A stretch of DNA of 64,000 nt, taken from IMG/VR virus record IMGVR_UViG_3300027710_000009, one strand, 5' to 3'. Under the pieces are notes generated by a model. It did no database searches and was not told the DNA's origin. It was given only the letters and a program-made list of their open reading frames with translations. The number at the start of each line of letters is the position of its first letter. The stretch's first letter is position 1. Made by a program: the position numbers and the translations under genes. Positions 26,339 through 35,829 of the stretch are shown here, in pieces. Origin of the DNA: a virus. Lineage: Duplodnaviria > Heunggongvirae > Uroviricota > Caudoviricetes.

Positions 26339-27508
26339 TTAGTTGTATAAATCTTGCAGGCGATATATGCCTGTGCGATCTAGATTTTTGTTCACGGCCA
26401 AATAGGCCAAGAGCCCGGCGTCATTGCGACGGACAAGCTCTTTTTGTATACTAGCATCAACGATGGCGTCAATTATATTTTTTTCGTCCAGCTCTAGTGT
26501 TAGTTTTAACAGTTGTATGTCCTTGAACGGCGTGAATGTAATAGTGCGTCCAAGATGCCAGTGCTGGTGATCGTTAATGCACATCCGCAGAATATGCTCC
26601 GCAGTTGTTTGTTTGCTTTGTATTACCTTTTGTATTTGTTCGTCCTGCTGTTGTCTTGCATAGATAGCAGATTTCTCTACACCTTGAAAGTACAGGTAAT
26701 GATAATGCTCAGGTTCTAACACCTGTTCCATATTTTTGCCTAGATGCATCAGCATGATATTTGCTGTTGCAGGCCCACGCAAAAAATACTCATCGCCACA
26801 GGCCCCAGTGACTAGAATAGTGGGCTTGCGGTAATGATGTATTTGGTTATAACCCCAGTGTTCACGCAACTGAGATTCAAAATTAATTGTGAACTGATCG
26901 TAGTCAGTGTGTTCAGCCATGATCAATTCATGTGGTATGTGCAGTGCTCGTAGATAACTGATACACAGCAAGGTATCGATGCCACCAGAGTAAAATACCT
27001 TGATGTTGTCTGCGTTTAGACCCAACCACGAAAACTTAGCAGTCAACAAGTTGTGCATTTCATCTACCACTTCAGTAAAACTGCGTGTGGACCCTGGCAC
27101 AGGAATCACTGTACAACGATGTTCATGTATGGTTTGATCAATAGTTACCCAGGCATCTGCCCATACGTTCACAGGATGTTGTACTTCAATGTTGCCAACT
27201 GCATGCTCGGCATCGTCACGAAACAGTGGTGTTGCTCTACTGGTATCATTGGTAACTGTCACTGTACCGTTTTTATGAGCTAGTACTGCTACAAAGTTAC
27301 CTTCAAATCTAGGCTGTGCATTTTCAAACAGTTCTTCTGCCAGCACATGATTGATGCCACGCTGAAAGCAATAGCCCTTGATGTATGCATAACCATACTG
27401 GGTGTGTATCTCTTGCCAACCTAGATCACAATTGAGCCAAAGTTCTTTGGTCAGCGGATACTGCGCAGGGAACTTGGTGTCTTGTGTGGGCTTGATACAA
27501 AAGAACAT
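26339..27508 (-). CDS. Asparagine-synthase-like protein (ATP pyrophosphatase domain)
   Basis: Degenerate Ntn part (EGNF...D....PLF), YSGGIDT PP-loop, TGACGDEYF. Confidence 0.65.
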   Translation of the reverse strand: MFFCIKPTQDTKFPAQYPLTKELWLNCDLGWQEIHTQYGYAYIKGYCFQRGINHVLAEELFENAQPRFEGNFVAVLAHKNGTVTVTNDTSRATPLFRDDAEHAVGNIEVQHPVNVWADAWVTIDQTIHEHRCTVIPVPGSTRSFTEVVDEMHNLLTAKFSWLGLNADNIKVFYSGGIDTLLCISYLRALHIPHELIMAEHTDYDQFTINFESQLREHWGYNQIHHYRKPTILVTGACGDEYFLRGPATANIMLMHLGKNMEQVLEPEHYHYLYFQGVEKSAIYARQQQDEQIQKVIQSKQTTAEHILRMCINDHQHWHLGRTITFTPFKDIQLLKLTLELDEKNIIDAIVDASIQKELVRRNDAGLLAYLAVNKNLDRTGIYRLQDLYN

Positions 27509-27867
27509 TACTTTTGACTGTCGCCTTTTGCTACTCTGTAATTGTCTTCCACAGAGTCCGGTGTGCTGACTTCAATCACTGTGCCTGCTTCGACGCATTC
27601 CAGCTGATGAGGTTTGCAAGGTTCATTGTGCCATACACTACCATCACGCAGTTCTTTTTCGTGCAGTTCAGCAGTGGCAGTGTCAATCCAACGCACAATA
27701 AATCGTCCTGATTGCACATACCATGTTTCTTCTTTGAATTGATGAAAGTGCATACTGAACTTGGCGCCAGTATTAAAGTTCATCATCTTGCCGCAGTACT
27801 TGTCATTGGTAGCCCAGATAAATTCTGAACCCCACCCCTTGGGTACTAATCCTTTTAACTGTGTCAT
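27508..27867 (-). CDS. Cupin (sugar isomerase-like)
   Basis: KGWG.E, SMHFH..KEETW, EVSTPDSVEDNYR. Confidence 0.8.
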   Translation of the reverse strand: MTQLKGLVPKGWGSEFIWATNDKYCGKMMNFNTGAKFSMHFHQFKEETWYVQSGRFIVRWIDTATAELHEKELRDGSVWHNEPCKPHQLECVEAGTVIEVSTPDSVEDNYRVAKGDSQK

Positions 27868-28613
27868 CGTATTTCATCCAATCTTGGTGCATACACACCA
27901 GTGTGTTGTACAGTAACGGCGCTGGCACGAATAGCAAATAAAATTGCTTGACTCATGTCACCATCTGTATTTAGATATTCATATGCCAATGCTGCCAAGA
28001 ATGTATCACCGGCTCCACACACGTCAGTAACGTCTATTTCAGGCGCCGGATACATGACAAAATTGTGCAAAGCGCCTTCTTTACCCAGCGTTACAATCAT
28101 GTTTGTGCAATCGCTGTGTCTTGCCTTGTATTCAACTTCGTTGATCTTTACAATGCAACCTTCAAATCTTTTTAGATCCTGCTTTTTGGTGTCAATGAAA
28201 ATAGGACCCGGAAATTCTCTGCGTAGTTCTTCCACCAGCTCATATGTGATCAGGCCTTTGTTGTAGTCGCTGATCACAATGGCATGATACACTTGTGGTA
28301 TTGCTGTTTCAAACACTAGCGGATCGTTTTTGACATCAGCATCTATTCTAACAATCTGTTGCTTGCTACGACTGTCAATCAATCGTGTCTTGACACTTTG
28401 TTGCCCTGTGATAAAATTTGCATCTAGGCCAAGTGCTTTGAGATTTTCATATACATTGGCCGCCATGCCTGGGCGTTTTTCTTCTGTGGTGGGTGTGAAC
28501 ACAGGAACAGGTGCTTCTGGACTCATACGATCCACAACACCATATTGATAAACATCTAAACAACTGTCACCTAGTAACAATATGTTGAATTGCTTTTGTA
28601 CTGGAATACTCAT
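27864..28613 (-). CDS. HldE/RfaE domain I heptose-7-phosphate kinase-like (PfkB family)
   Basis: GDSCLD.Y, RMSPEAPVPV, ISDYNKG, DVCGAGDTF; start moved to MSIPVQ. Confidence 0.88.
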   Translation of the reverse strand: MSIPVQKQFNILLLGDSCLDVYQYGVVDRMSPEAPVPVFTPTTEEKRPGMAANVYENLKALGLDANFITGQQSVKTRLIDSRSKQQIVRIDADVKNDPLVFETAIPQVYHAIVISDYNKGLITYELVEELRREFPGPIFIDTKKQDLKRFEGCIVKINEVEYKARHSDCTNMIVTLGKEGALHNFVMYPAPEIDVTDVCGAGDTFLAALAYEYLNTDGDMSQAILFAIRASAVTVQHTGVYAPRLDEIR

Positions 28614-28962
28614 CGAGTCTTTCAAAAAATTCAATGCGTGGCACATGTTCTTCACCAATGATTGGCCGACCACGATAGTCGCTGCCTTTGACCATGATGT
28701 CTGGCTCGCTTGTTTGGATCAGGTGTTCTAGTTCTTGATCTGTGTCAAAAGTACAAACCTTGTCCACGTACCTTAGAGCTTGCAACATTAGCCTGCGTTC
28801 ATCTTGATTGAAGAACGGACGGCCTGTGCCTTTTAGCTGTCGTACACGACGATCTGTATCTATAGCAACTGTTACCCTGCCAAGACTAGCCGCATACTGC
28901 AACAGCATCACATGCCCCGGATGCAGGATATCAAACGTACCATTGACGAACACTTTAATCAT
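28567..28962 (-). CDS. HldE/RfaE domain II nucleotidyltransferase-like
   Basis: NGTFDILHPGH, LKG.GRP, VKGSDY, YSST; start MIKVF lies just after the promoter. Confidence 0.9.
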   Translation of the reverse strand: MIKVFVNGTFDILHPGHVMLLQYAASLGRVTVAIDTDRRVRQLKGTGRPFFNQDERRLMLQALRYVDKVCTFDTDQELEHLIQTSEPDIMVKGSDYRGRPIIGEEHVPRIEFFERLDEYSSTKAIQHIVTR

Positions 28963-28968
28963 TGTTAC

Positions 28969-28997
28969 ATTATATATTGTTGCACAAGCTTCGTCAA
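28969..28997 (-). promoter_or_regulatory. sigma70 promoter, likely leaderless transcript
   Basis: TTGACG-17nt-TATAAT-6nt-ATG. Confidence 0.75.
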
Positions 28998-29005
28998 TAG
29001 ATATT

Positions 29006-29079
29006 TGGTGCTCAAGTACAGAATCGAACTGTCGATTGCTCCTTACCATGGAGCCGTTATGCCACTTAACTACAAGAGC
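29006..29079 (-). tRNA. tRNA-Thr(GGT)
   Basis: Loop ATGGTAA, CCA. Confidence 0.88.
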
Positions 29080-29080
29080 G

Positions 29081-29157
29081 TGGTACCCCTCCCCCGACTC
29101 GAACGGGGAACACACTCCTTTTGAGAGAGCCGCGTCTACCAATTGCGCCAGAGGGGT
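29081..29157 (-). tRNA. tRNA-Leu(CAA), short variable loop
   Basis: Loop CTCAAAA, 77 nt. Confidence 0.85.
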
Positions 29158-29163
29158 ATTGAG

Positions 29164-29239
29164 TGGTGGAAGTGGTGAGACTCGAACTCACGATAAACAC
29201 CGTATGAAGGTGGCGCATTAGCCACTATGCTACACTTCC
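29164..29239 (-). tRNA. tRNA-Met(CAT), elongator-type
   Basis: Loop TTCATAC, G1-C72. Confidence 0.75.
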
Positions 29240-29244
29240 TGAAA

Positions 29245-29321
29245 TGGCGACCCCGAAAGGATTTGAACCTCTGACATTTGGTTTTGGAGACCAACGTTCT
29301 GCCGGACTGAACTACGGAGCC
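29245..29321 (-). tRNA. tRNA-Trp(CCA)
   Basis: Loop CTCCAAA. Confidence 0.92.
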
Positions 29322-29326
29322 ATGTA

Positions 29327-29404
29327 TGGAGCAACGGGTGAGATTTGAACTCACGGTTTTCGGGATTTGCAATCCCGTGCATTGGGCCGCTCTGCCACCG
29401 TTGC
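29327..29404 (-). tRNA. tRNA-Cys(GCA)
   Basis: Loop TTGCAAA, U73. Confidence 0.92.
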
Positions 29405-29408
29405 ATAT

Positions 29409-29482
29409 TGGTTGCGGGCCCAGGATTTGAACCTGGGATGCTCCTGGCTTATGAGACCGGAGTGGTGGCCGCCCTGCCCGCG
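29409..29482 (-). tRNA. tRNA-fMet-like (CAT), degenerate D arm
   Basis: CGCGGG 5' end, C1:A72 mismatch, loop CTCATAA. Confidence 0.7.
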
Positions 29483-29489
29483 ATAATCT

Positions 29490-29581
29490 TGGCGGAAACG
29501 GAGAGATTCGAACTCTCGGTGCCAATTACTTGACACGACAGGTTAGCAACCTGCTGCCTTAGACCACTCGGCCACGTTTCC
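29490..29581 (-). tRNA. tRNA-Ser(GCT)
   Basis: Loop TTGCTAA, long variable arm. Confidence 0.92.
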
Positions 29582-29591
29582 AGTTGTTTGT

Positions 29592-29620
29592 ATTATATAG
29601 TGATAGCACATTGCTGTCAA
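29592..29620 (-). promoter_or_regulatory. sigma70 promoter inside the tRNA array
   Basis: TTGACA-17nt-TATAAT. Confidence 0.85.
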
Positions 29621-29629
29621 TGTTTATTT

Positions 29630-29705
29630 TGGTAGTTCCTAGCGGGCTTGAACCACTGACCTTTACGATGTCAACGTAACGCTCTACCAACTGAGCTAAG
29701 GAACT
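29630..29705 (-). tRNA. tRNA-Val(GAC)
   Basis: Loop TTGACAT. Confidence 0.92.
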
Positions 29706-29707
29706 GT

Positions 29708-29782
29708 TGGTACCGCTAGGAGGAATCGAACCTCCGTCTTAACCTTAGGAGTGTTTTGTTCTATCCACTGAACTATAGCGGT
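29708..29782 (-). tRNA. tRNA-Arg(CCT), weak anticodon stem
   Basis: Loop CTCCTAA, A20. Confidence 0.78.
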
Positions 29783-29988
29783 TTGTTTAGTTTTTTGATA
29801 TGCTCAATGTGGCGTTTGAATTCGCGCACATAGTAAGGATCTTTTTCCAGCATCTTGGCTAGATATCCTGCTAGAAAACCTGCATGATACAGCCTGTGCA
29901 TTCTTTCGTTGCCCTTGTATTCCACAGGACACACTGACTCTACACTTTGTTGTATAAACTTAACATAGTCTTCGTGTGAGTAGTCCAT
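29773..29988 (-). CDS. Hypothetical protein within the tRNA array
   Basis: 71 aa filling the gap between tRNAs; TAAATA-5nt-ATG. Confidence 0.7.
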   Translation of the reverse strand: MDYSHEDYVKFIQQSVESVCPVEYKGNERMHRLYHAGFLAGYLAKMLEKDPYYVREFKRHIEHIKKLNKPL

Positions 29989-29999
29989 ACAAATATTTA

Positions 30000-30075
30000 T
30001 GGAGCCCCCTGAGGGATTCGAACCCCCGACTAACTGGTTCGAAGCCAGCTACTCTGTCCACTGAGTTAAAGGGGC
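30000..30075 (-). tRNA. tRNA-Arg(TCG)
   Basis: Loop CTTCGAA. Confidence 0.9.
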
Positions 30076-30081
30076 AATGTG

Positions 30082-30157
30082 TGGTGCCAAGGACTGGACT
30101 CGAACCAGTAACACACGGATTTTCAATCTGCTGCTCTACCATTGGAGCTACCGAGGC
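30082..30157 (-). tRNA. tRNA-Phe(GAA)
   Basis: Loop TTGAAAA. Confidence 0.9.
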
Positions 30158-30162
30158 ATGTT

Positions 30163-30237
30163 TGGGGAGAAGTACGGGAATCGAACCCGTGATAGCGGAA
30201 TCACAACCCGCGGTTTTGCCACTAAACTAACGACTCC
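30163..30237 (-). tRNA. tRNA-His(GTG)
   Basis: Loop TTGTGAT, G-1:C73. Confidence 0.88.
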
Positions 30238-30243
30238 ATTGAT

Positions 30244-30317
30244 TGGCACGGGAACTAGGGATCGAACCTAGGACGACAGAGTCAAAGTCTGTTGTGTTAC
30301 CGCTACACCATTCCCGA
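30244..30317 (-). tRNA. tRNA-Gln(TTG)
   Basis: Loop CTTTGAC. Confidence 0.9.
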
Positions 30318-30324
30318 ACAAAAC

Positions 30325-30401
30325 TGGCGCGACCAGCAGGATTCGAACCTACCACCCCAACGTTCGTAGCGTTGTACTCTATCCAAATGAGCTATGGTCG
30401 C
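30325..30401 (-). tRNA. tRNA-Arg(ACG)
   Basis: Loop CTACGAA. Confidence 0.92.
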
Positions 30402-30504
30402 ATAATTAGTGCTAGATTGTTTACTGCACAACCTAGCAAAGCAGGGGTCTGTAGACTGCATACAACTTGTCTCATTGTACTCCGTATGCAAGGGAGAGAT
30501 TGAA

Positions 30505-30722
30505 TTTGAGAGCCTACGCCGCGTTTATCGTAGATTTATTCAGGACTTACCGGCCGCCTAGCCTGACCTCGCTCGCGATGGATATCACTTGGGCGCCTGT
30601 CCAGTTAGCAACCAATCTGCACCGCTCTTCCGAGCAGCCGGGAGTTGAACCCGTCCCCTTTTACTATTTTGGTAGTTCGAACTTACCTAGATAGCGTGAC
30701 TGCGCTTGCTGACACTCTCAAA
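30505..30722 (-). ncRNA. Structured ~218-nt ncRNA, family unassigned
   Basis: Closing stem TTTGAGAG/CTCTCAAA, T-loop-like GGGTTCAACTCCC, GNRA hairpin GCTC-GGAA-GAGC. Confidence 0.65.
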
Positions 30723-30725
30723 ACT

Positions 30726-30802
30726 TGGTCGGAGTACAAGGATTCGAACCTTGGACCCCCTGGTCCCAAACCAGGTGCGCTACCAGACTGCGCCACACTC
30801 CG
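30726..30802 (-). tRNA. tRNA-Pro(TGG)
   Basis: Loop TTTGGGA. Confidence 0.92.
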
Positions 30803-30809
30803 AAATTGA

Positions 30810-30883
30810 TGGTGCCCCGTGACAGAATCGAACTGCCAACTACTGATTACAAAACAGTTGTTATACCACTTAACTAACAGGGC
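30810..30883 (-). tRNA. tRNA-Thr(TGT)
   Basis: Loop TTTGTAA. Confidence 0.9.
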
Positions 30884-30890
30884 TTGAAAC

Positions 30891-30964
30891 TGGAGCGGGG
30901 TAGGAGAATCGAACTCCTCGCTTTAGCTTGGAAGGCTAAGGTATTACCACTATACGAACCCCGC
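30891..30964 (-). tRNA. tRNA-Gly(TCC)
   Basis: Loop CTTCCAA. Confidence 0.92.
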
Positions 30965-30973
30965 AATAAAATC

Positions 30974-31048
30974 TGGTGCATCGTGAGAGGGTCGAACTCC
31001 CGACATTCGCCGTGTAAAGGCGCTACTCTACCACTGAGTTAACGATGC
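30974..31048 (-). tRNA. tRNA-Val(TAC)
   Basis: Loop TTTACAC. Confidence 0.92.
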
Positions 31049-31053
31049 AATGT

Positions 31054-31128
31054 TGGTGGAGGATAGCGGGGTCGAACCGCTGACTGAAGCTTGCAAAGCT
31101 ACTGTGTTCCCAACTATACCAATCCCCC
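31054..31128 (-). tRNA. tRNA-Ala(TGC)
   Basis: Loop TTTGCAA, G3:U70. Confidence 0.92.
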
Positions 31129-31135
31129 ATAACAC

Positions 31136-31211
31136 TGGCTCCACAGGGTGGGCTCGAACCACCGACCAAATGATTAACAGTCATCTACTCTACCAACTGA
31201 GCTACTGCGGA
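31136..31211 (-). tRNA. tRNA-Asn(GTT)
   Basis: Loop CTGTTAA. Confidence 0.92.
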
Positions 31212-31219
31212 ATAAAATC

Positions 31220-31295
31220 TGGAGCGGGCGAAGAGGTTCGAACTCTCGACATTTACCTTGGCAAGGTAATGCTCTACCAACTGAGCTACGCCCGC
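31220..31295 (-). tRNA. tRNA-Gly(GCC)
   Basis: Loop TTGCCAA. Confidence 0.92.
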
Positions 31296-31306
31296 ATGTG
31301 TTTTAC

Positions 31307-31528
31307 TTATTTGTCGCGAACTTTCTTCAAATATTCGCGACCTACTTTACCTTGTTCAATTTCTTCAAGCACTTGAATAATAGGACCATTTGTTGATACA
31401 ACTTTTGATCTATGTCCAGCTTTGATTTCTCTTAGTCTAGCTGATGCAATCAACACTAGGTCAAATTGATTACCTATCATTTGTGCTGCCTCTTGTGATG
31501 TTCTACCAGTGATGTATTCGTCGGACAT
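31307..31528 (-). CDS. rpoZ: RNA polymerase omega subunit homolog
   Basis: IGNQFDLVLIASARLREI...VLEEIEQG matches the omega core GNRFDLVLVAARRARQ...ALREIEEG. Confidence 0.85.
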   Translation of the reverse strand: MSDEYITGRTSQEAAQMIGNQFDLVLIASARLREIKAGHRSKVVSTNGPIIQVLEEIEQGKVGREYLKKVRDK

Positions 31529-31552
31529 TAAGTTCCTTTGTTTTATTTACTT

Positions 31553-31581
31553 AGTATAACACACGATCATGCTAATTGCAA
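31553..31581 (-). promoter_or_regulatory. sigma70-type promoter upstream of rpoZ
   Basis: TTGCAA-17nt-TATACT. Confidence 0.6.
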
Positions 31582-31656
31582 TGGTTGCCTATCTTGGGAA
31601 CGATCCAAGGACCCCCGCCTTATCAAGACGGTGCTCTACCACTGAGCTAATAGGCA
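31582..31656 (-). tRNA. tRNA-Ile(GAT), variant T loop
   Basis: Loop TTGATAA; T loop ATCGTTC. Confidence 0.88.
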
Positions 31657-31661
31657 ATAAT

Positions 31662-31823
31662 ACCATATGGAAACACACTAGTGAGCCAGTCTAACGCAGC
31701 CATCGCAACTTTGCAAGTCGTTTCCAACTTGTGTATCGTCTTTCTGGGCGAGCTGTATGTGTAGAGCTCCGCAAGTTCTCAATGCAATCGCTTGCAAGGA
31801 CAACTAGTATGTTTTCATATGGT
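31662..31823 (-). repeat. Stem-bracketed cassette A
   Basis: ACCATATGAAAACATACTAGT...ACTAGTGTGTTTCCATATGGT. Confidence 0.85.
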
Positions 31824-31895
31824 AGAAGCAGTGGGACTCGAACCCACAACTATCCGGTTAAAAGCCGGGTACTCTAGCCATTGAGTTATGCTTCC
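31820..31895 (-). tRNA. tRNA-Lys(TTT)
   Basis: Loop CTTTTAA. Confidence 0.92.
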
Positions 31896-31898
31896 ATA

Positions 31899-31974
31899 TG
31901 GTCCCTGCGGTCAGGCTCGAACTGACGACCAGCGGATTAAGAGTCCGTTGCGCTACCAACTGCGCCACACAGGG
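31899..31974 (-). tRNA. tRNA-Lys(CTT)
   Basis: Loop CTCTTAA. Confidence 0.9.
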
Positions 31975-31997
31975 TTGTACGTATTGTTTGATTTTAC

Positions 31998-32067
31998 GTG
32001 CCAACCCTAGACCATACGGATGCCTAGAGCGACACTAGAGTTTACCTCGTTTCATGTCAATCTCCTT
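31998..32067 (-). other. Minigene MKRGKL* (32035..32055) with SD and a hairpin starting at its stop codon
   Basis: AAGGAG-6nt-ATG AAA CGA GGT AAA CTC TAG, then a ~14-bp hairpin. Confidence 0.55.
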
Positions 32068-32079
32068 GATTAAATAAAA

Positions 32080-32272
32080 TGCTCTGCGAACCCCGGTGGT
32101 AATTATACCGTATCAGACCTTTGGAGTCATCACGCACGGCCTCCACCCACTTCCCGACGGGTTCCGTTGTCGCATTGCCAGCGGCCTTTCGGTAGGAAGA
32201 CTACCACCCTTGGCTATCACACCACTTCTCATCGTGCGGGTCACACTATCTGCTGATTAGGCAGAACGTTCT
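32080..32272 (-). ncRNA. Structured ~190-nt ncRNA, family unassigned
   Basis: GC-rich, ORF-free; hairpins TCTGC-CTAATCA-GCAGA and CC-GAAA-GG; long-range pairs CGCACG/CGTGCG and GGTGGTAG/TTACCACC. Confidence 0.65.
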
Positions 32273-32331
32273 AGCTACAGGACACTTGTGTTGTTTAAGC
32301 CTGAGCACGGATGCAAGGCTCCTCTAAAAAT

Positions 32332-32406
32332 TGGCGGTGCCAAGGGGTAACGATCCCCTTCTTCGAGCGTGACAGGCTCGTGTGCGTCCATGAACACTTT
32401 GGCACC
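32332..32406 (-). tRNA. tRNA-Asp(GTC), variant T loop
   Basis: Loop CTGTCAC; T loop ATCGTTA. Confidence 0.88.
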
Positions 32407-32412
32407 TAAAAA

Positions 32413-32488
32413 TGGTACACGGTACGGGAATCGAACCCGTCTTACTAACGTGAAAGGCTAGTGTCCTAAACCGATAGACGAACCGTGC
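32413..32488 (-). tRNA. tRNA-Glu(TTC)
   Basis: Loop CTTTCAC. Confidence 0.9.
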
Positions 32489-32493
32489 ATAAA

Positions 32494-32578
32494 TGGTGGA
32501 GGTGGCTGGACTTGAACCAACAATGCACAAGGGCGGCGGATTTACAGTCCACTGGGGATACCATTTTCCTACACCTCC
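32494..32578 (-). tRNA. tRNA-Tyr(GTA)
   Basis: Loop CTGTAAA, long variable arm. Confidence 0.9.
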
Positions 32579-32804: not shown

Positions 32805-33688
32805 GGAGGACTGAGAATACATCTCTCCCATAAGCACCTCAAGCATTATTGTACACCTTGCGAGCGTACTTTCTCTTGACTTCCACTCGGGTCCTTGCGG
32901 ATCTCCTAGTCTGCTTACAGTATCGCCGTTTTTAACGTCAAGCAGTAGACGTGTCATCATATGCTATTCTGCGGATTCCATTCCGTTAGCCTTGCGAGCT
33001 ATTCAGGTGCGCTAACACCTTACGAACCCCCCTCCACAAACTAATGTCACCTTGCGAGCTTCATTAGACTTGATTCACTTGCGTGTCAAGTATTAGATAC
33101 TTTTCACATATGACCGAGGCAGTCTTTGCGTTTTTGTAATGATAGTTGGGATTTGAACCCGACTGCATCCAGCTTAAAAGGCTAGCGTTCAACCATTGAA
33201 CTTTATCAACCTACCGTGATGAGCTACCTCTGTTGCTATATAATCTTTTGGACTACATAATACAACTCACCACATACCTTTCCTCTTGCGGAGTAATCAG
33301 TGATGTTTCACGACCAGTGTCCTGCTTCAAAACAGTCCACCACCCATTAACATTGCACACGAGCCCTTGGGTGCAACCCCTCGAACCAATATACTACCCT
33401 TTCTCATACCTGTTGACAAGTTGGTTTTGTATGGAAGTCAGCACCACCTGTTACTTTTCATGCACCCTGGTTCCCTTACGGGCCAGTCGATACACATTCT
33501 TCCCCATACACTTGCTTCACAGTTACAACCACCGGTCTTATCAGTGATCGCTACCTTGCGATAGTGAGCAGGCTTGTTTACATGAACCATCTCTGGCGCA
33601 GGAGTGTAGGACTCATCTGCTTTGGGTAGGTCACCCTACTTATTCTTCGTAGACGGCAAGCCGCCTACAGGACAATAAACTGCCCCGA
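32805..33688 (-). ncRNA. GOLLD-like giant ncRNA (~880 nt) with an embedded tRNA-like domain
   Basis: No - strand ORF, about seven GCAA tetraloop hairpins, located in a phage tRNA cluster; size and context fit GOLLD. Confidence 0.72.
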
Positions 33689-33690
33689 AA

Positions 33691-33817
33691 CTTTATTTGT
33701 TCTGCCATCTGCACTATATGCCTCGCTCAACAGCTTTACTCGAGTTTACTGTTTATTGCTTTGGTTACATAACGCTTGATCTTGCCTCTGTGCTTACAGA
33801 AGGCAGAACAAATAAAG
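33691..33817 (-). repeat. Stem-bracketed cassette F (stem sequence unrelated to A-D)
   Basis: Perfect 16-bp inverted repeat CTTTATTTGTTCTGCC/GGCAGAACAAATAAAG. Confidence 0.8.
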
Positions 33818-33818
33818 C

Positions 33819-34031
33819 CCATATCAAAACATACTACAGGAACTCCACTTACCTCACAGGACCGTCTCCTGCTACTTCCGTTTCGTCATTACAGTCTAAC
33901 ATACTCCACCGTGTCATACTTGGGTTTCCCCTCAACTTTCATGTGACTTGCACAGAGCCAGTCCGTCAACTGGTTATCCTCAGTGCAAGCACCTAGTGGT
34001 GTTAGCAACCTCTAATACATTTAGATATGGT
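33819..34031 (-). repeat. Stem-bracketed cassette D
   Basis: ACCATATCTAAATGTATTA...TAGTATGTTTTGATATGG with G-U pairs. Confidence 0.8.
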
Positions 34032-34104
34032 GCCCAAGGAGAGACTCGAACTCTCAAAATTTGGCTTCTAAGACCAACACGTATACCAATTCCGTCACCT
34101 GGGC
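34028..34104 (-). tRNA. tRNA-Leu(TAG), short variable loop
   Basis: Loop CTTAGAA, 77 nt. Confidence 0.85.
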
Positions 34105-34119
34105 ATTGCTTTTTAACGA

Positions 34120-34131
34120 TGTTAAAGAACA
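34120..34131 (-). promoter_or_regulatory. boxA-like Nus antitermination site
   Basis: TGTTCTTTAACA versus rrn boxA TGCTCTTTAACA. Confidence 0.7.
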
Positions 34132-34165
34132 TTTGTTCGTCTGCAAACGATGTTGCAGTTGGGTT

Positions 34166-34194
34166 AGTGTAACTGCAATTTGCATTGCTGTCAA
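34166..34194 (-). promoter_or_regulatory. sigma70 promoter P2 of the RNA array
   Basis: TTGACA-17nt-TACACT. Confidence 0.75.
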
Positions 34195-34267
34195 CTAATT
34201 TTTCTACTGTGTTGCAAAACAACAACAGCACCCTTGTTAGCAACACGATGTTTGCTACAGTTTCACA

Positions 34268-34296
34268 AGTATATGTGATCCTGGCATTGCTGTCAA
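34268..34296 (-). promoter_or_regulatory. sigma70 promoter P1 of the RNA array
   Basis: TTGACA-17nt-TATACT. Confidence 0.8.
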
Positions 34297-34391
34297 CTGC
34301 TTTTTTAACATGTTGCAAAAATACTACACTGGTTGTTGACTTTGCAACACTTACAGATTCACAGTCGGTAAGTCATGTTCGTCCAATGTAG

Positions 34392-34455
34392 GTATCAAAG
34401 CACTCTTCATGGATGAACCCACTTGTCCCCTCGCGGGTAGAGAATGCTTTGATAC
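34392..34455 (-). repeat. Stem-bracketed cassette E
   Basis: GTATCAAAGCATTCT/AGAGTGCTTTGATAC, 15 bp. Confidence 0.75.
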
Positions 34456-34577
34456 GTTACCATTTTACCATCTGCGTTTCCACCACAGACTTCTCATCCG
34501 GTAAGCCGCCCACATTAATAGCCGATGTTTTGAGTGCCAGCAGGGTCGCGTTCCCTATACACACTTTTCATGATCCT

Positions 34578-34612
34578 AAAAACAAAAAACCCCAGGGTTT
34601 TAAGCCTAGGGT
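34578..34612 (-). terminator. Attenuator terminator
   Basis: ACCCTAGG-CTTAAAAC-CCTGGGGT followed by TTTTTGTTTTT. Confidence 0.8.
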
Positions 34613-34639
34613 CCTTGGAGTTTGCTGAGTTAATTTGTG

Positions 34640-34780
34640 TTAACTGTGCGAGTCTCCTGGACCCTTGGTGCCTGGTAGTGTGCGATCATTACTAATCTCA
34701 GTCGCAGACCACAAGGCCACTGGCATAAATGAATATGCTTGGCTATGCTGTTTGCAGTTGAGAACGAATGTCGGTTTCAT
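34640..34780 (-). CDS. 46-aa leader peptide MKPTFVLNCKQHSQAYSFMPVALWSATEISNDRTLPGTKGPGDSHS
   Basis: AAAGGA upstream; lies between a promoter and a terminator; contains the antiterminator arm. Confidence 0.7.
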   Translation of the reverse strand: MKPTFVLNCKQHSQAYSFMPVALWSATEISNDRTLPGTKGPGDSHS

Positions 34781-34834
34781 TTTGTTTCTTTTTCCTTTGA
34801 TACTCAGTACATTATTGCACTGTGTAAGTCTTGT

Positions 34835-34863
34835 ATTGTAGAGATATTTAGCAATGCTGTCAA
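34835..34863 (-). promoter_or_regulatory. sigma70 promoter with nested TAAATA motif
   Basis: TTGACA-gcattgcTAAATAtctc-TACAAT. Confidence 0.8.
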
Positions 34864-34909: not shown

Positions 34910-34999
34910 TGGTCCCCCGTTGCAGAATCGAACTGCATCCTGGACCTTATCTAGATTAATCGTGTATAAAACGACCTGCTCTCCATGAGCTAACGGGGG
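34910..34999 (-). tRNA. Atypical tRNA-Ile(TAT)-like gene with long variable insert
   Basis: CCCCCGT/ACGGGGG-ACCA acceptor, loop TTTATAC, ~21-nt variable region. Confidence 0.6.
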
Positions 35000-35009
35000 A
35001 TTAAAAACT

Positions 35010-35094
35010 TGGTACCCCCGACCGGACTCGAACCGGTACGCCTCAACGGCGGCAGATTTTAAGTCTGCTATGTCTACCATTCCATCACAGGGGC
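35010..35094 (-). tRNA. tRNA-Leu(TAA)
   Basis: Loop CTTAAAA, long variable arm. Confidence 0.92.
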
Positions 35095-35175
35095 ACGATC
35101 ATCATAAAGATGATATTCGTAATCGGCCTATGTAGAATGGAGTGTTCATGTGTGTACTATAACTTGAATATTTAT

Positions 35176-35658
35176 TTATGTCAACCGCGATTCTTCAATT
35201 TCTAACCAGGTGTGGTCACCCATGTATTTCACTTGCGTTTGGTATTCGTAGTCTTCGGGTGCAGAGCTTGACCAATCGTTAGGCCCATGGTGTGTCAGTA
35301 GAACATGTTGTTTGCGCTTGTCCCAGACCAACCAGTAAGTCTGGCCCATCACAGGACTGAACTGATATACAGCGGCATGCACTGCATCTGTGACATCTAG
35401 TCGTCGTTTGATTGACTGTGCTTGTTTTTCCAGTACTGAGACCAGTTCCATGATCCTGTCGTACTCTTGCTGGGCATACATCCTAGCATGGTTGATCATG
35501 AGATCTTTTTGCTGTGTAACGGGCACAAGATCAAACTTGGGTCCACCTGCTTCAGTTGGGTAAGGTGTTACATTACGATTAAAAAACGGAATAATCCCGC
35601 CTGTGGTGGTAGAGTCATAACTGTCTCTGCCCTTGGCTAGGTTTGATTTTTTTTCCAT
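35176..35658 (-). CDS. Hypothetical protein (DUF2452-like)
   Basis: PYPT..G.PKF, F.PVMGQTY, P.DW, DHTW pattern. Confidence 0.6.
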   Translation of the reverse strand: MEKKSNLAKGRDSYDSTTTGGIIPFFNRNVTPYPTEAGGPKFDLVPVTQQKDLMINHARMYAQQEYDRIMELVSVLEKQAQSIKRRLDVTDAVHAAVYQFSPVMGQTYWLVWDKRKQHVLLTHHGPNDWSSSAPEDYEYQTQVKYMGDHTWLEIEESRLT

Positions 35659-35674
35659 GTAATTACTTATGTCT

Positions 35675-35749
35675 TGGTCCGGCGTGAAGGAATCGAACCC
35701 TCATTCTGGGAGTAGAAATCCCATGCATTATCCATTATACTAACGCCAG
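35675..35749 (-). tRNA. tRNA-Arg(TCT)
   Basis: Loop TTTCTAC, A20. Confidence 0.85.
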
Positions 35750-35754
35750 ATGTT

Positions 35755-35829
35755 TGGTGGGCTCACTGTGAATTGAACACAGACTCAATCGATTATGAGT
35801 CGACTGCTTTACCATTAAGCTATGAGCCC
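35755..35829 (-). tRNA. tRNA-Ile2-type (CAT, lysidine substrate)
   Basis: CGACTCATAATCG anticodon arm typical of ileX-type tRNAs. Confidence 0.75.

Follow-up and report, generated by a model that had tools for sequence, protein, structure and literature searches.

We analyzed a leader element at the head of a transfer RNA (tRNA) array in a 64,000-nucleotide (nt) stretch of DNA from a virus of the class Caudoviricetes (IMG/VR record IMGVR_UViG_3300027710_000009; the whole stretch is hereafter called the window). All leader, terminator and array elements lie on the minus strand, and the promoter, 46-codon open reading frame (ORF), antiterminator, terminator and 28 downstream tRNAs that an earlier reading of the same DNA (the original prediction) had claimed are all present (Table 1). 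We consider it likely, with good confidence, that the element is a ribosome-coupled attenuator: its leader would test decoding capacity, and a failure to decode it would let transcription into an island of RNA and tRNA genes. This reading is built on the anatomy of promoter, ORF and terminator, on selection acting on the composition of the leader, and on covariation between antiterminator and terminator.

To describe the leader as a family, viral contigs were scanned with a DNA pattern for the terminator only, which together with loci found by synteny and the window itself gave 110 distinct stretches. A leader-type ORF ended 18-31 nt upstream of the terminator in 103 of them, so the ORF stays open in homologs; the remaining seven comprised two stretches without an ORF, four with unrelated genes and one that was truncated. 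At least three same-strand tRNAs followed in 60 of the 66 stretches with at least 1 kilobase downstream (four of the other six are non-members), and the leader promoter matched the consensus at 11 or more of 12 positions in 93 of 103 members. A pattern for a coding motif yielded 99 stretches (66 with the terminator, 10 added by eye, the others discarded as unrelated), and a scan for a variant terminator (GAACCC) yielded 106, of which 14 were retained; five further GAACCC stretches with tRNAs downstream contained no ATG ORF by the filter used. Of the added members, 24 were chosen by eye for their terminator, their tRNA context or their likeness to a member. The combined family holds 152 distinct leaders of 30-67 codons, from which we drew a non-redundant set of 55 leaders below 60% identity. 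In addition, an independent set was picked by its upstream DUF2452 gene (80 loci, 21 of them with at least four tRNAs). The family leader was found in 7 of these 21 (six with 20 amino-acid types, one with 19), and a small Glu/Tyr/Asp/Leu block in five, with a different 32-codon leader in both that were examined; no leader was in view in the other nine (seven show only upstream tRNAs; the others are L013 and L054). Neither the window element (blastn) nor the upstream DUF2452 gene (tblastn) had a match in 50,697 cultured phage records. One exact pattern run on GTDB genome contigs returned 121 stretches, mostly by chance; they included a single family member (L558) and a single analogue, which is rich in Leu (L520). 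This result does not imply absence in bacteria. The analogue, in a Tepidisphaeraceae metagenome-assembled genome (L520:2941-3110, plus strand), is a 26-codon Leu/Ser-rich leader whose terminator is immediately followed by six tRNAs, one for Tyr and five for Leu.

Across the family, the leader is very likely kept complete in amino-acid composition as its sequence drifts. All 20 amino acids occur in 119 of the 152 distinct leaders and in 33 of the 55 non-redundant ones, and at least 19 occur in 143 of 152. By comparison, 0.8% of 46-codon windows taken from the window's long ORFs (n=2897) hold all 20, as do 2.4% of uniform codon samples. Sampling from the family's own composition would give 2.2 complete leaders out of 55, and column shuffles 6.4 (maximum 15 in 2000), against the 33 observed. 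When leader halves were swapped at the conserved Trp, a procedure that is robust against local misalignment, 17.4 complete leaders were expected and 32 of 53 observed (maximum 27 in 3000). Completeness is reached at shifting positions: single Cys residues are spread over 16 different alignment columns, and changes at residues that occur only once are depleted between close pairs (24 of 478 versus 57.7 expected). Moreover, the ratio of nonsynonymous to synonymous substitution rates (dN/dS) is 0.34 over 46 disjoint pairs, which indicates purifying selection, and because of this selection we infer that the leader ORF is translated. The other two frames carry stops in 52 and 54 of the 55 leaders.

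The original prediction had described the leader as 'pan-codon'. Our recount returned the same 20 amino acids, 40 distinct codons of 46 and 31 distinct codons in the first 33, and the roughly 32 of 46 that it expected of uniform sampling agrees with a computed mean of 32.5. For the window alone the diversity is unusual: 40 or more distinct codons have P=6e-4 under uniform sampling and P=6e-3 with the peptide fixed and synonymous codons drawn uniformly, none of the 2897 comparison windows reaches 40, and the window ranks third among the 55 non-redundant leaders. In the family, by contrast, the excess is merely 0.65-0.85 codons (an average of 34.2 versus 33.3 in a column-preserving shuffle, +0.85, and +0.65 over uniform synonymous choice). 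The expected low peptide identity and covarying antiterminator and terminator are thus found among homologs, while codon diversity is only mildly raised; strict selection for all codons is rejected, and the selected trait is that no amino acid is missing, which makes 'all-amino-acid' a better name for the leader than 'pan-codon'. We also rejected, at the family level, the idea that leaders avoid the codons of ungated upstream tRNAs (TTA, AGA, ATA). Codon choice is skewed in another way: for Tyr, His, Asp and Asn, U-ending codons make up 77-98% in leaders versus about 50% in the window's genes, a background from one genome. The same bias is seen for Phe, and through it the switch could come to depend on wobble decoding or on tRNA modification.

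The second line of evidence is the pairing between the end of the leader and the terminator. Positions 34612-34608 belong to both structures, which makes them mutually exclusive as had been claimed. By folding, the antiterminator (34665-34654 with 34620-34608) reaches -23.4 kcal/mol including its enclosed hairpin, against -12.0 for the terminator, and the naked leader RNA is predicted to take the antiterminator form. Among the 152 leaders, the antiterminator core and terminator arm form GGGTCC/GGACCC in 131, GGGTTC/GAACCC in 14 and other pairs in six, and one leader has no core; no GAACCC member retains GGGTCC, and in L012 and L016, both identified through synteny, two bases have changed in a compensatory way. 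The inner extension folds to -15.6 with its own partner against -13.5 when partners are swapped, and none of 5000 shuffles reached the native value. Translation crosses the core in each of the three frames (in 47, 91 and 13 leaders), so the core is an RNA feature. These data also bear on the idea that the ORF codes for a small protein with a function of its own in front of an ordinary terminator, with the pairing incidental, which we regard as very improbable. Such a protein would fit the low dN/dS and the conserved Trp and Arg, each shared by 90% or more of 43 aligned peptides. The same peptides, however, have no invariant column and a mean identity of 34%, their C-terminus is read in three frames, the coding sequence pairs with the terminator arm through compensatory changes, and what is conserved is composition, not position. 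The leader ORF had no match in Pfam or PHROG.

Switching by ribosome position is predicted by folding only the RNA ahead of the ribosome, with a 13-nt footprint. For the window, the predicted terminator probability stays at or below 0.16 with A-site codons 11-34, is 0.32 at codon 35 and reaches 1.0 from codon 36. When the ribosome stalls 6-9 codons short of the core, 87% of 54 members have a predicted terminator probability below 0.5; with the ribosome at the stop codon, all 54 have 1.0. A stall at any codon, as originally proposed, is thus not predicted to open the gate; at this footprint, the prediction confines the effect to codons up to about 34-35. The attenuator itself is supported by the open ORF, its purifying selection, the compensatory changes, its position at the head of the array and the predicted position switch, and what falls away is any-codon sensing and the pan-codon design. 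The ribosome-binding region of the window leader is weak and A-rich (AAGGA at 34797-34793). In 15 of 101 family members the ATG lies no more than 10 nt from the -10 box, which suggests leaderless translation.

The antiterminator is predicted to win without a ribosome, so any translation failure would open the switch. This raises the alternative that the main signal is the presence or absence of any translation of the leader (as set by initiation, ribosome availability, drugs or infection stage) and that amino-acid content is secondary. The whiB7 leader answers many stresses (bioRxiv 10.1101/2023.06.02.543512), and just before the switch point lies a conserved stretch, N/Y-D-R-T-P-E, whose codons hardly vary (37 of 37 Asp are GAT) and which could be a pause or arrest signal. 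Still, selection for each amino acid would be left unexplained, as would the leaders of the cultured phage RsoM2USA that match their own tRNA blocks (see below), and we judge this alternative improbable.

We inspected, in part, the tRNA regions of 12 cultured phages. RsoM2USA (MG752970) has its tRNAs divided into blocks. In the leader before its Pro/Cys/Glu/Tyr/Leu/Trp/Ser/His/Val block, 21 of 24 codons match the leader's own block and 6 of 24 the other; in the leader before the Met/Ile/Asn/Gln/Lys/Arg/Phe/Ala/Val/Pro/Asp/Thr block, the counts are 33 and 5 of 36. The first of these leaders was spotted by eye after the filter had missed it, and no leader was seen at the other RsoM2USA blocks. 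Leaders with 18 or 19 amino-acid types were found in Atu_ph07 (MF403008, 339246-339118, annotated as hypothetical; 42 codons, 18 types), Phosso (PV764938, ORF ending at 419918; 19 types, partial predicted switch) and Xanthomonas phage X1 (OQ427096, 135559-135678, unannotated; 39 codons, 19 types). These leaders resemble that of the window in design. The window's RecA-like gene is closest to those of GAP32-, Atu_ph07- and Phosso-type jumbo phages (60-69% identity). Locus L008 (9785-10136, plus strand), like L005, shows a region resembling transfer-messenger RNA, a promoter, a near-leaderless 32-codon ORF and a predicted switch, followed by a Glu/Tyr/Asp/Leu tRNA block.

Several observations weigh against the attenuator as we read it. 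Family members are related, and counts therefore overstate independent events; a half-swap at a late Asp anchor was weak (26.9 expected versus 31 of 43, P=0.03). No switching is predicted for about 13% of members, and Gly first appears at codon 37 of the window leader, past the predicted switch point. Sensing zones that hold all 20 amino acids occur in 4 of 54 members at the 13-nt footprint, in 23 at 10 nt and in 28 at 7 nt, and words resembling a Shine-Dalgarno sequence in just 24 of 54. Equilibrium folding leaves out kinetics, polymerase pausing and Rho. For the cultured phages, folding predicts a weak switch in Atu_ph07 and none in Xanthomonas phage X1, and the match between the short L008 leader and its four-tRNA block is not significant (8 of 21, P=0.14). 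No leader turned up in the regions inspected of GAP32, Vibrio 2.275.O, XaC1, DLP_6, V45v66, BcepSaruman, RHph_TM2_3B and XacN1; these eight negatives are soft, because the filter also missed one true case (RsoM2USA block 1, L012). Finally, two internal promoters precede the first tRNA in the window and in only two others among 90 family loci.

These promoters, which the original prediction had already noted downstream of the terminator (34296-34268 and 34194-34166), concern the scope of the gate. ARAGORN places 28 tRNAs covering all 20 amino acids between 34104 and 29006, and it is possible, if rather unlikely, that the gate in the window controls only the structured RNA of about 170 nt, with the tRNAs expressed from the internal promoters and the family trait partly vestigial here. 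RNA contigs of no discernible origin cover 34062-34348 and 34187-34430, as this alternative would allow. We found no terminator-like site between the structured-RNA motif and the first tRNA, however, 72 of 90 family loci have no promoter with at least 10 of 12 matches between terminator and first tRNA, and the window leader is intact. Because of the two internal promoters, control by the gate is probably partial in the window; the alternative concerns scope and can be compatible with the attenuator. Around the internal promoters, at 34150-34350 on the minus strand, repeated TGTTGCAA / TTGCAACA words are possibly operator sites.

Six of 24 sequencing runs were compared with the window (runs X1-X6). 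RNA contigs of runs X2, X3 and X4 end at 34820, which lies 8-9 nt into the predicted transcript; no loose end is listed there, and the DNA-like run X1 continues past this position. Contigs in X2, X3 and X4 bridge the terminator, and in the RNA runs X5 and X6 a contig of a relative crosses the leader promoter (the X5 contig spans 34710-35133). The contigs, which are unstranded and in X2-X4 possibly from one campaign, give a weak hint of transcription and read-through. The upstream sigma70-type promoter may also feed the leader, as no terminator-like site was found between the two.

The first element after the terminator is the structured RNA, whose motif occurs in 73 of 90 family loci and shows strong covariation, with two-sided changes at 18 of 23 consensus pairs; by eye it likely contains a pseudoknot. 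Assignment to manA or another Rfam family was rejected, with no match among the matches listed. In 62 of 90 loci a gene for a conserved protein of about 50-58 residues comes first after the terminator (e.g. L091:3051-3209, plus strand); this gene is absent from the window, and its product has unnamed look-alikes only, including a PHROG entry that matches weakly and whose function is unknown. The GOLLD RNA is preceded by an ORF-poor stretch of about 740 nt (to 34010) that RNA contigs cover without a break, and relatives in two runs have 33685-33819 replaced by 10 bases. Upstream of the switch lie four tRNAs with their own promoters (Met-CAT, Arg-TCT, Leu-TAA and Ile-TAT; 34910-35829, minus strand), and Met, Arg and Leu tRNAs recur there in close relatives. 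The genes 3' of the array (26339-28996, minus strand) resemble, by eye, sugar-nucleotide and asparagine-synthase-like enzymes.

Table 1. Features of the leader locus and its surroundings in the window, in order of transcription.
Feature	Position	Strand	Remarks
Upstream sigma70-type promoter	35156..35184	-	promoter scan
tRNA-Leu(TAA) and tRNA-Ile(TAT)	34910..35094	-	ARAGORN; 5' of the switch, outside its control
Leader promoter	34835..34863	-	TTGACA(34863)-17-TACAAT(34835); sigma70-type, 11/12 consensus matches
Predicted transcription start	near 34828-34829	-	from leader promoter
5' hairpin	34806..34824	-	RNA folding; precedes ribosome-binding region
Leader ORF	34640..34780	-	46 codons, 20 amino acids, 40 distinct codons
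Predicted sensing zone	34676..34780	-	codons 1-35; 19 amino acids, without Gly
Antiterminator 5' strand	34654..34665	-	core GGGTCC and GGAG extension, within codons 39-43
Small hairpin over leader stop codon	34628..34645	-	folding; enclosed by antiterminator
Antiterminator 3' strand	34608..34620	-	overlaps terminator 5' arm
Intrinsic terminator	34578..34612	-	8-bp stem 34612-34605 with 34596-34589, then U tract
Structured RNA	34392..34565	-	about 170 nt; first element after terminator
Internal promoter 1	34268..34296	-	11/12 matches; could bypass gate
Internal promoter 2	34166..34194	-	10/12 matches
tRNA-Leu(TAG)	34028..34104	-	first tRNA after switch (ARAGORN)
GOLLD RNA	32808..33273	-	Rfam RF02032, 198 bits; embedded tRNA-like match 33137-33210
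Main tRNA array	29006..32578	-	27 genes and a few small ORFs
RNA polymerase omega-like gene (PF01192)	31307..31528	-	inside tRNA array

We propose that transcription would start at the leader promoter and that a ribosome, as purifying selection suggests, translates the leader. A ribosome past about codon 35 would cover the GGGTCC strand, so that the terminator folds and transcription stops; an earlier stall, or no loading at all, would favor the stronger antiterminator and read-through into the structured RNA, GOLLD and the tRNAs. With each amino acid kept at least once, shortage of or damage to almost any aminoacyl-tRNA could act as a trigger, and the phage tRNAs may then restore decoding and close the switch.

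What the switch evolved to detect is a separate matter. It might have evolved mainly against host anticodon nucleases and not nutrient shortage, an alternative that we take seriously but hold to be the less probable one. In its favor, tRNAs encoded by phages can save them from retron-Eco7 and PrrC170, an effect that depends on promoter strength (PMC11555353), and the whole leader contains codons for 26 of the 28 array anticodons (23 of 28 for the sensing zone). Given the peptide, however, 26 of 28 is merely the 95th percentile, no host or defense system was identified, and starvation of lake hosts would favor an identical design. All 24 sequencing runs listed with part of this region are aquatic, 23 of them lake or freshwater. 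As a tentative extension, in which we have less than even confidence, the attenuator may reflect a general rule in phages and some bacteria whereby a tRNA array is gated by a translated leader made up of the amino acids that its tRNAs carry. An array that is complete would then have a leader with 20 amino acids, which would audit the whole tRNA pool, detect damage by almost any host anticodon nuclease and answer with replacement tRNAs, GOLLD and the so far undescribed structured RNA. If true, this would amount to an inducible, defense-agnostic counter-defense made of RNA and ribosomes only.

It has long been asked why phages carry large sets of tRNAs, and a decoding-test leader in front of an array implies that the tRNAs serve as an on-demand repair kit. 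The leader would show which shortages the phage watches, so starvation and anticodon-nuclease defense would become directly testable as causes. The 260-nt element fits a reporter in Escherichia coli and might be put to use as a compact translation-stress sensor, and similar elements have gone unrecognised in the cultured phages Phosso, Atu_ph07, X1 and RsoM2USA.

Among known systems, the classical attenuators (trpL, hisL, pheL, thrL, leuL and ilvL) share the same promoter, leader ORF, overlapping antiterminator and terminator, and ribosome-position logic. Classical leaders repeat the codons of one to three amino acids, and the genes that they control encode biosynthetic enzymes, whereas the window leader has 20 amino-acid types and 40 distinct codons in place of a codon run, and structured RNAs and tRNAs in place of biosynthetic or synthetase genes downstream. 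In addition, the trp attenuator terminates when its leader is untranslated, whereas read-through is predicted in the window. T-box riboswitches also tie antitermination to tRNA charging; they bind one uncharged tRNA and have no ORF, and the leader locus had no match to a T-box or other riboswitch among Rfam covariance models. The E. coli topAI upstream ORF (uORF) reportedly senses several translation stresses and controls a toxin-antitoxin transcript.

The Anabaena trn operon comes close in output: 26 tRNA genes are normally silent and are induced by translational stress, with TrcR as regulator (PMC10272220). There, a protein repressor acts at initiation on a bacterial plasmid; in the window, a translated leader would take this role. 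The main texts of the RsoM2USA and XacN1 papers contain neither 'attenuat' nor 'leader' (PMC8504454, PMC5852040), and we found no account of leader-peptide attenuation of tRNA arrays in the literature searched, which did not extend to subscription journals or to the supplements of bioRxiv preprints. Closest of all is the whiB7/wblC uORF of Actinobacteria, where full translation leads to an intrinsic terminator, a stall leads to an antiterminator, and a single Trp codon determines the response to Trp (bioRxiv 10.1101/2023.06.02.543512). The Mycobacterium smegmatis whiB7 uORF contains all amino acids except Cys; the whiB7 uORF is Ala-enriched, and several amino acids are missing in M. tuberculosis (bioRxiv 10.1101/2023.06.02.543512). 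Both systems have a diverse uORF and read-through when it is untranslated (predicted by folding for the window), and a broad sensor of this kind is not new, since the whiB7 uORF already works in this way. The two differ in what they control: whiB7/wblC, with whiB7 downstream in Actinobacteria, governs a transcription factor, whereas the phage leader, of about 48 codons and selected for all 20 amino acids, would gate tRNA genes. Overall, attenuation by a diverse uORF is known from whiB7, and for a leader with all 20 amino acids that would gate a phage tRNA array we found no precedent in the literature searched.
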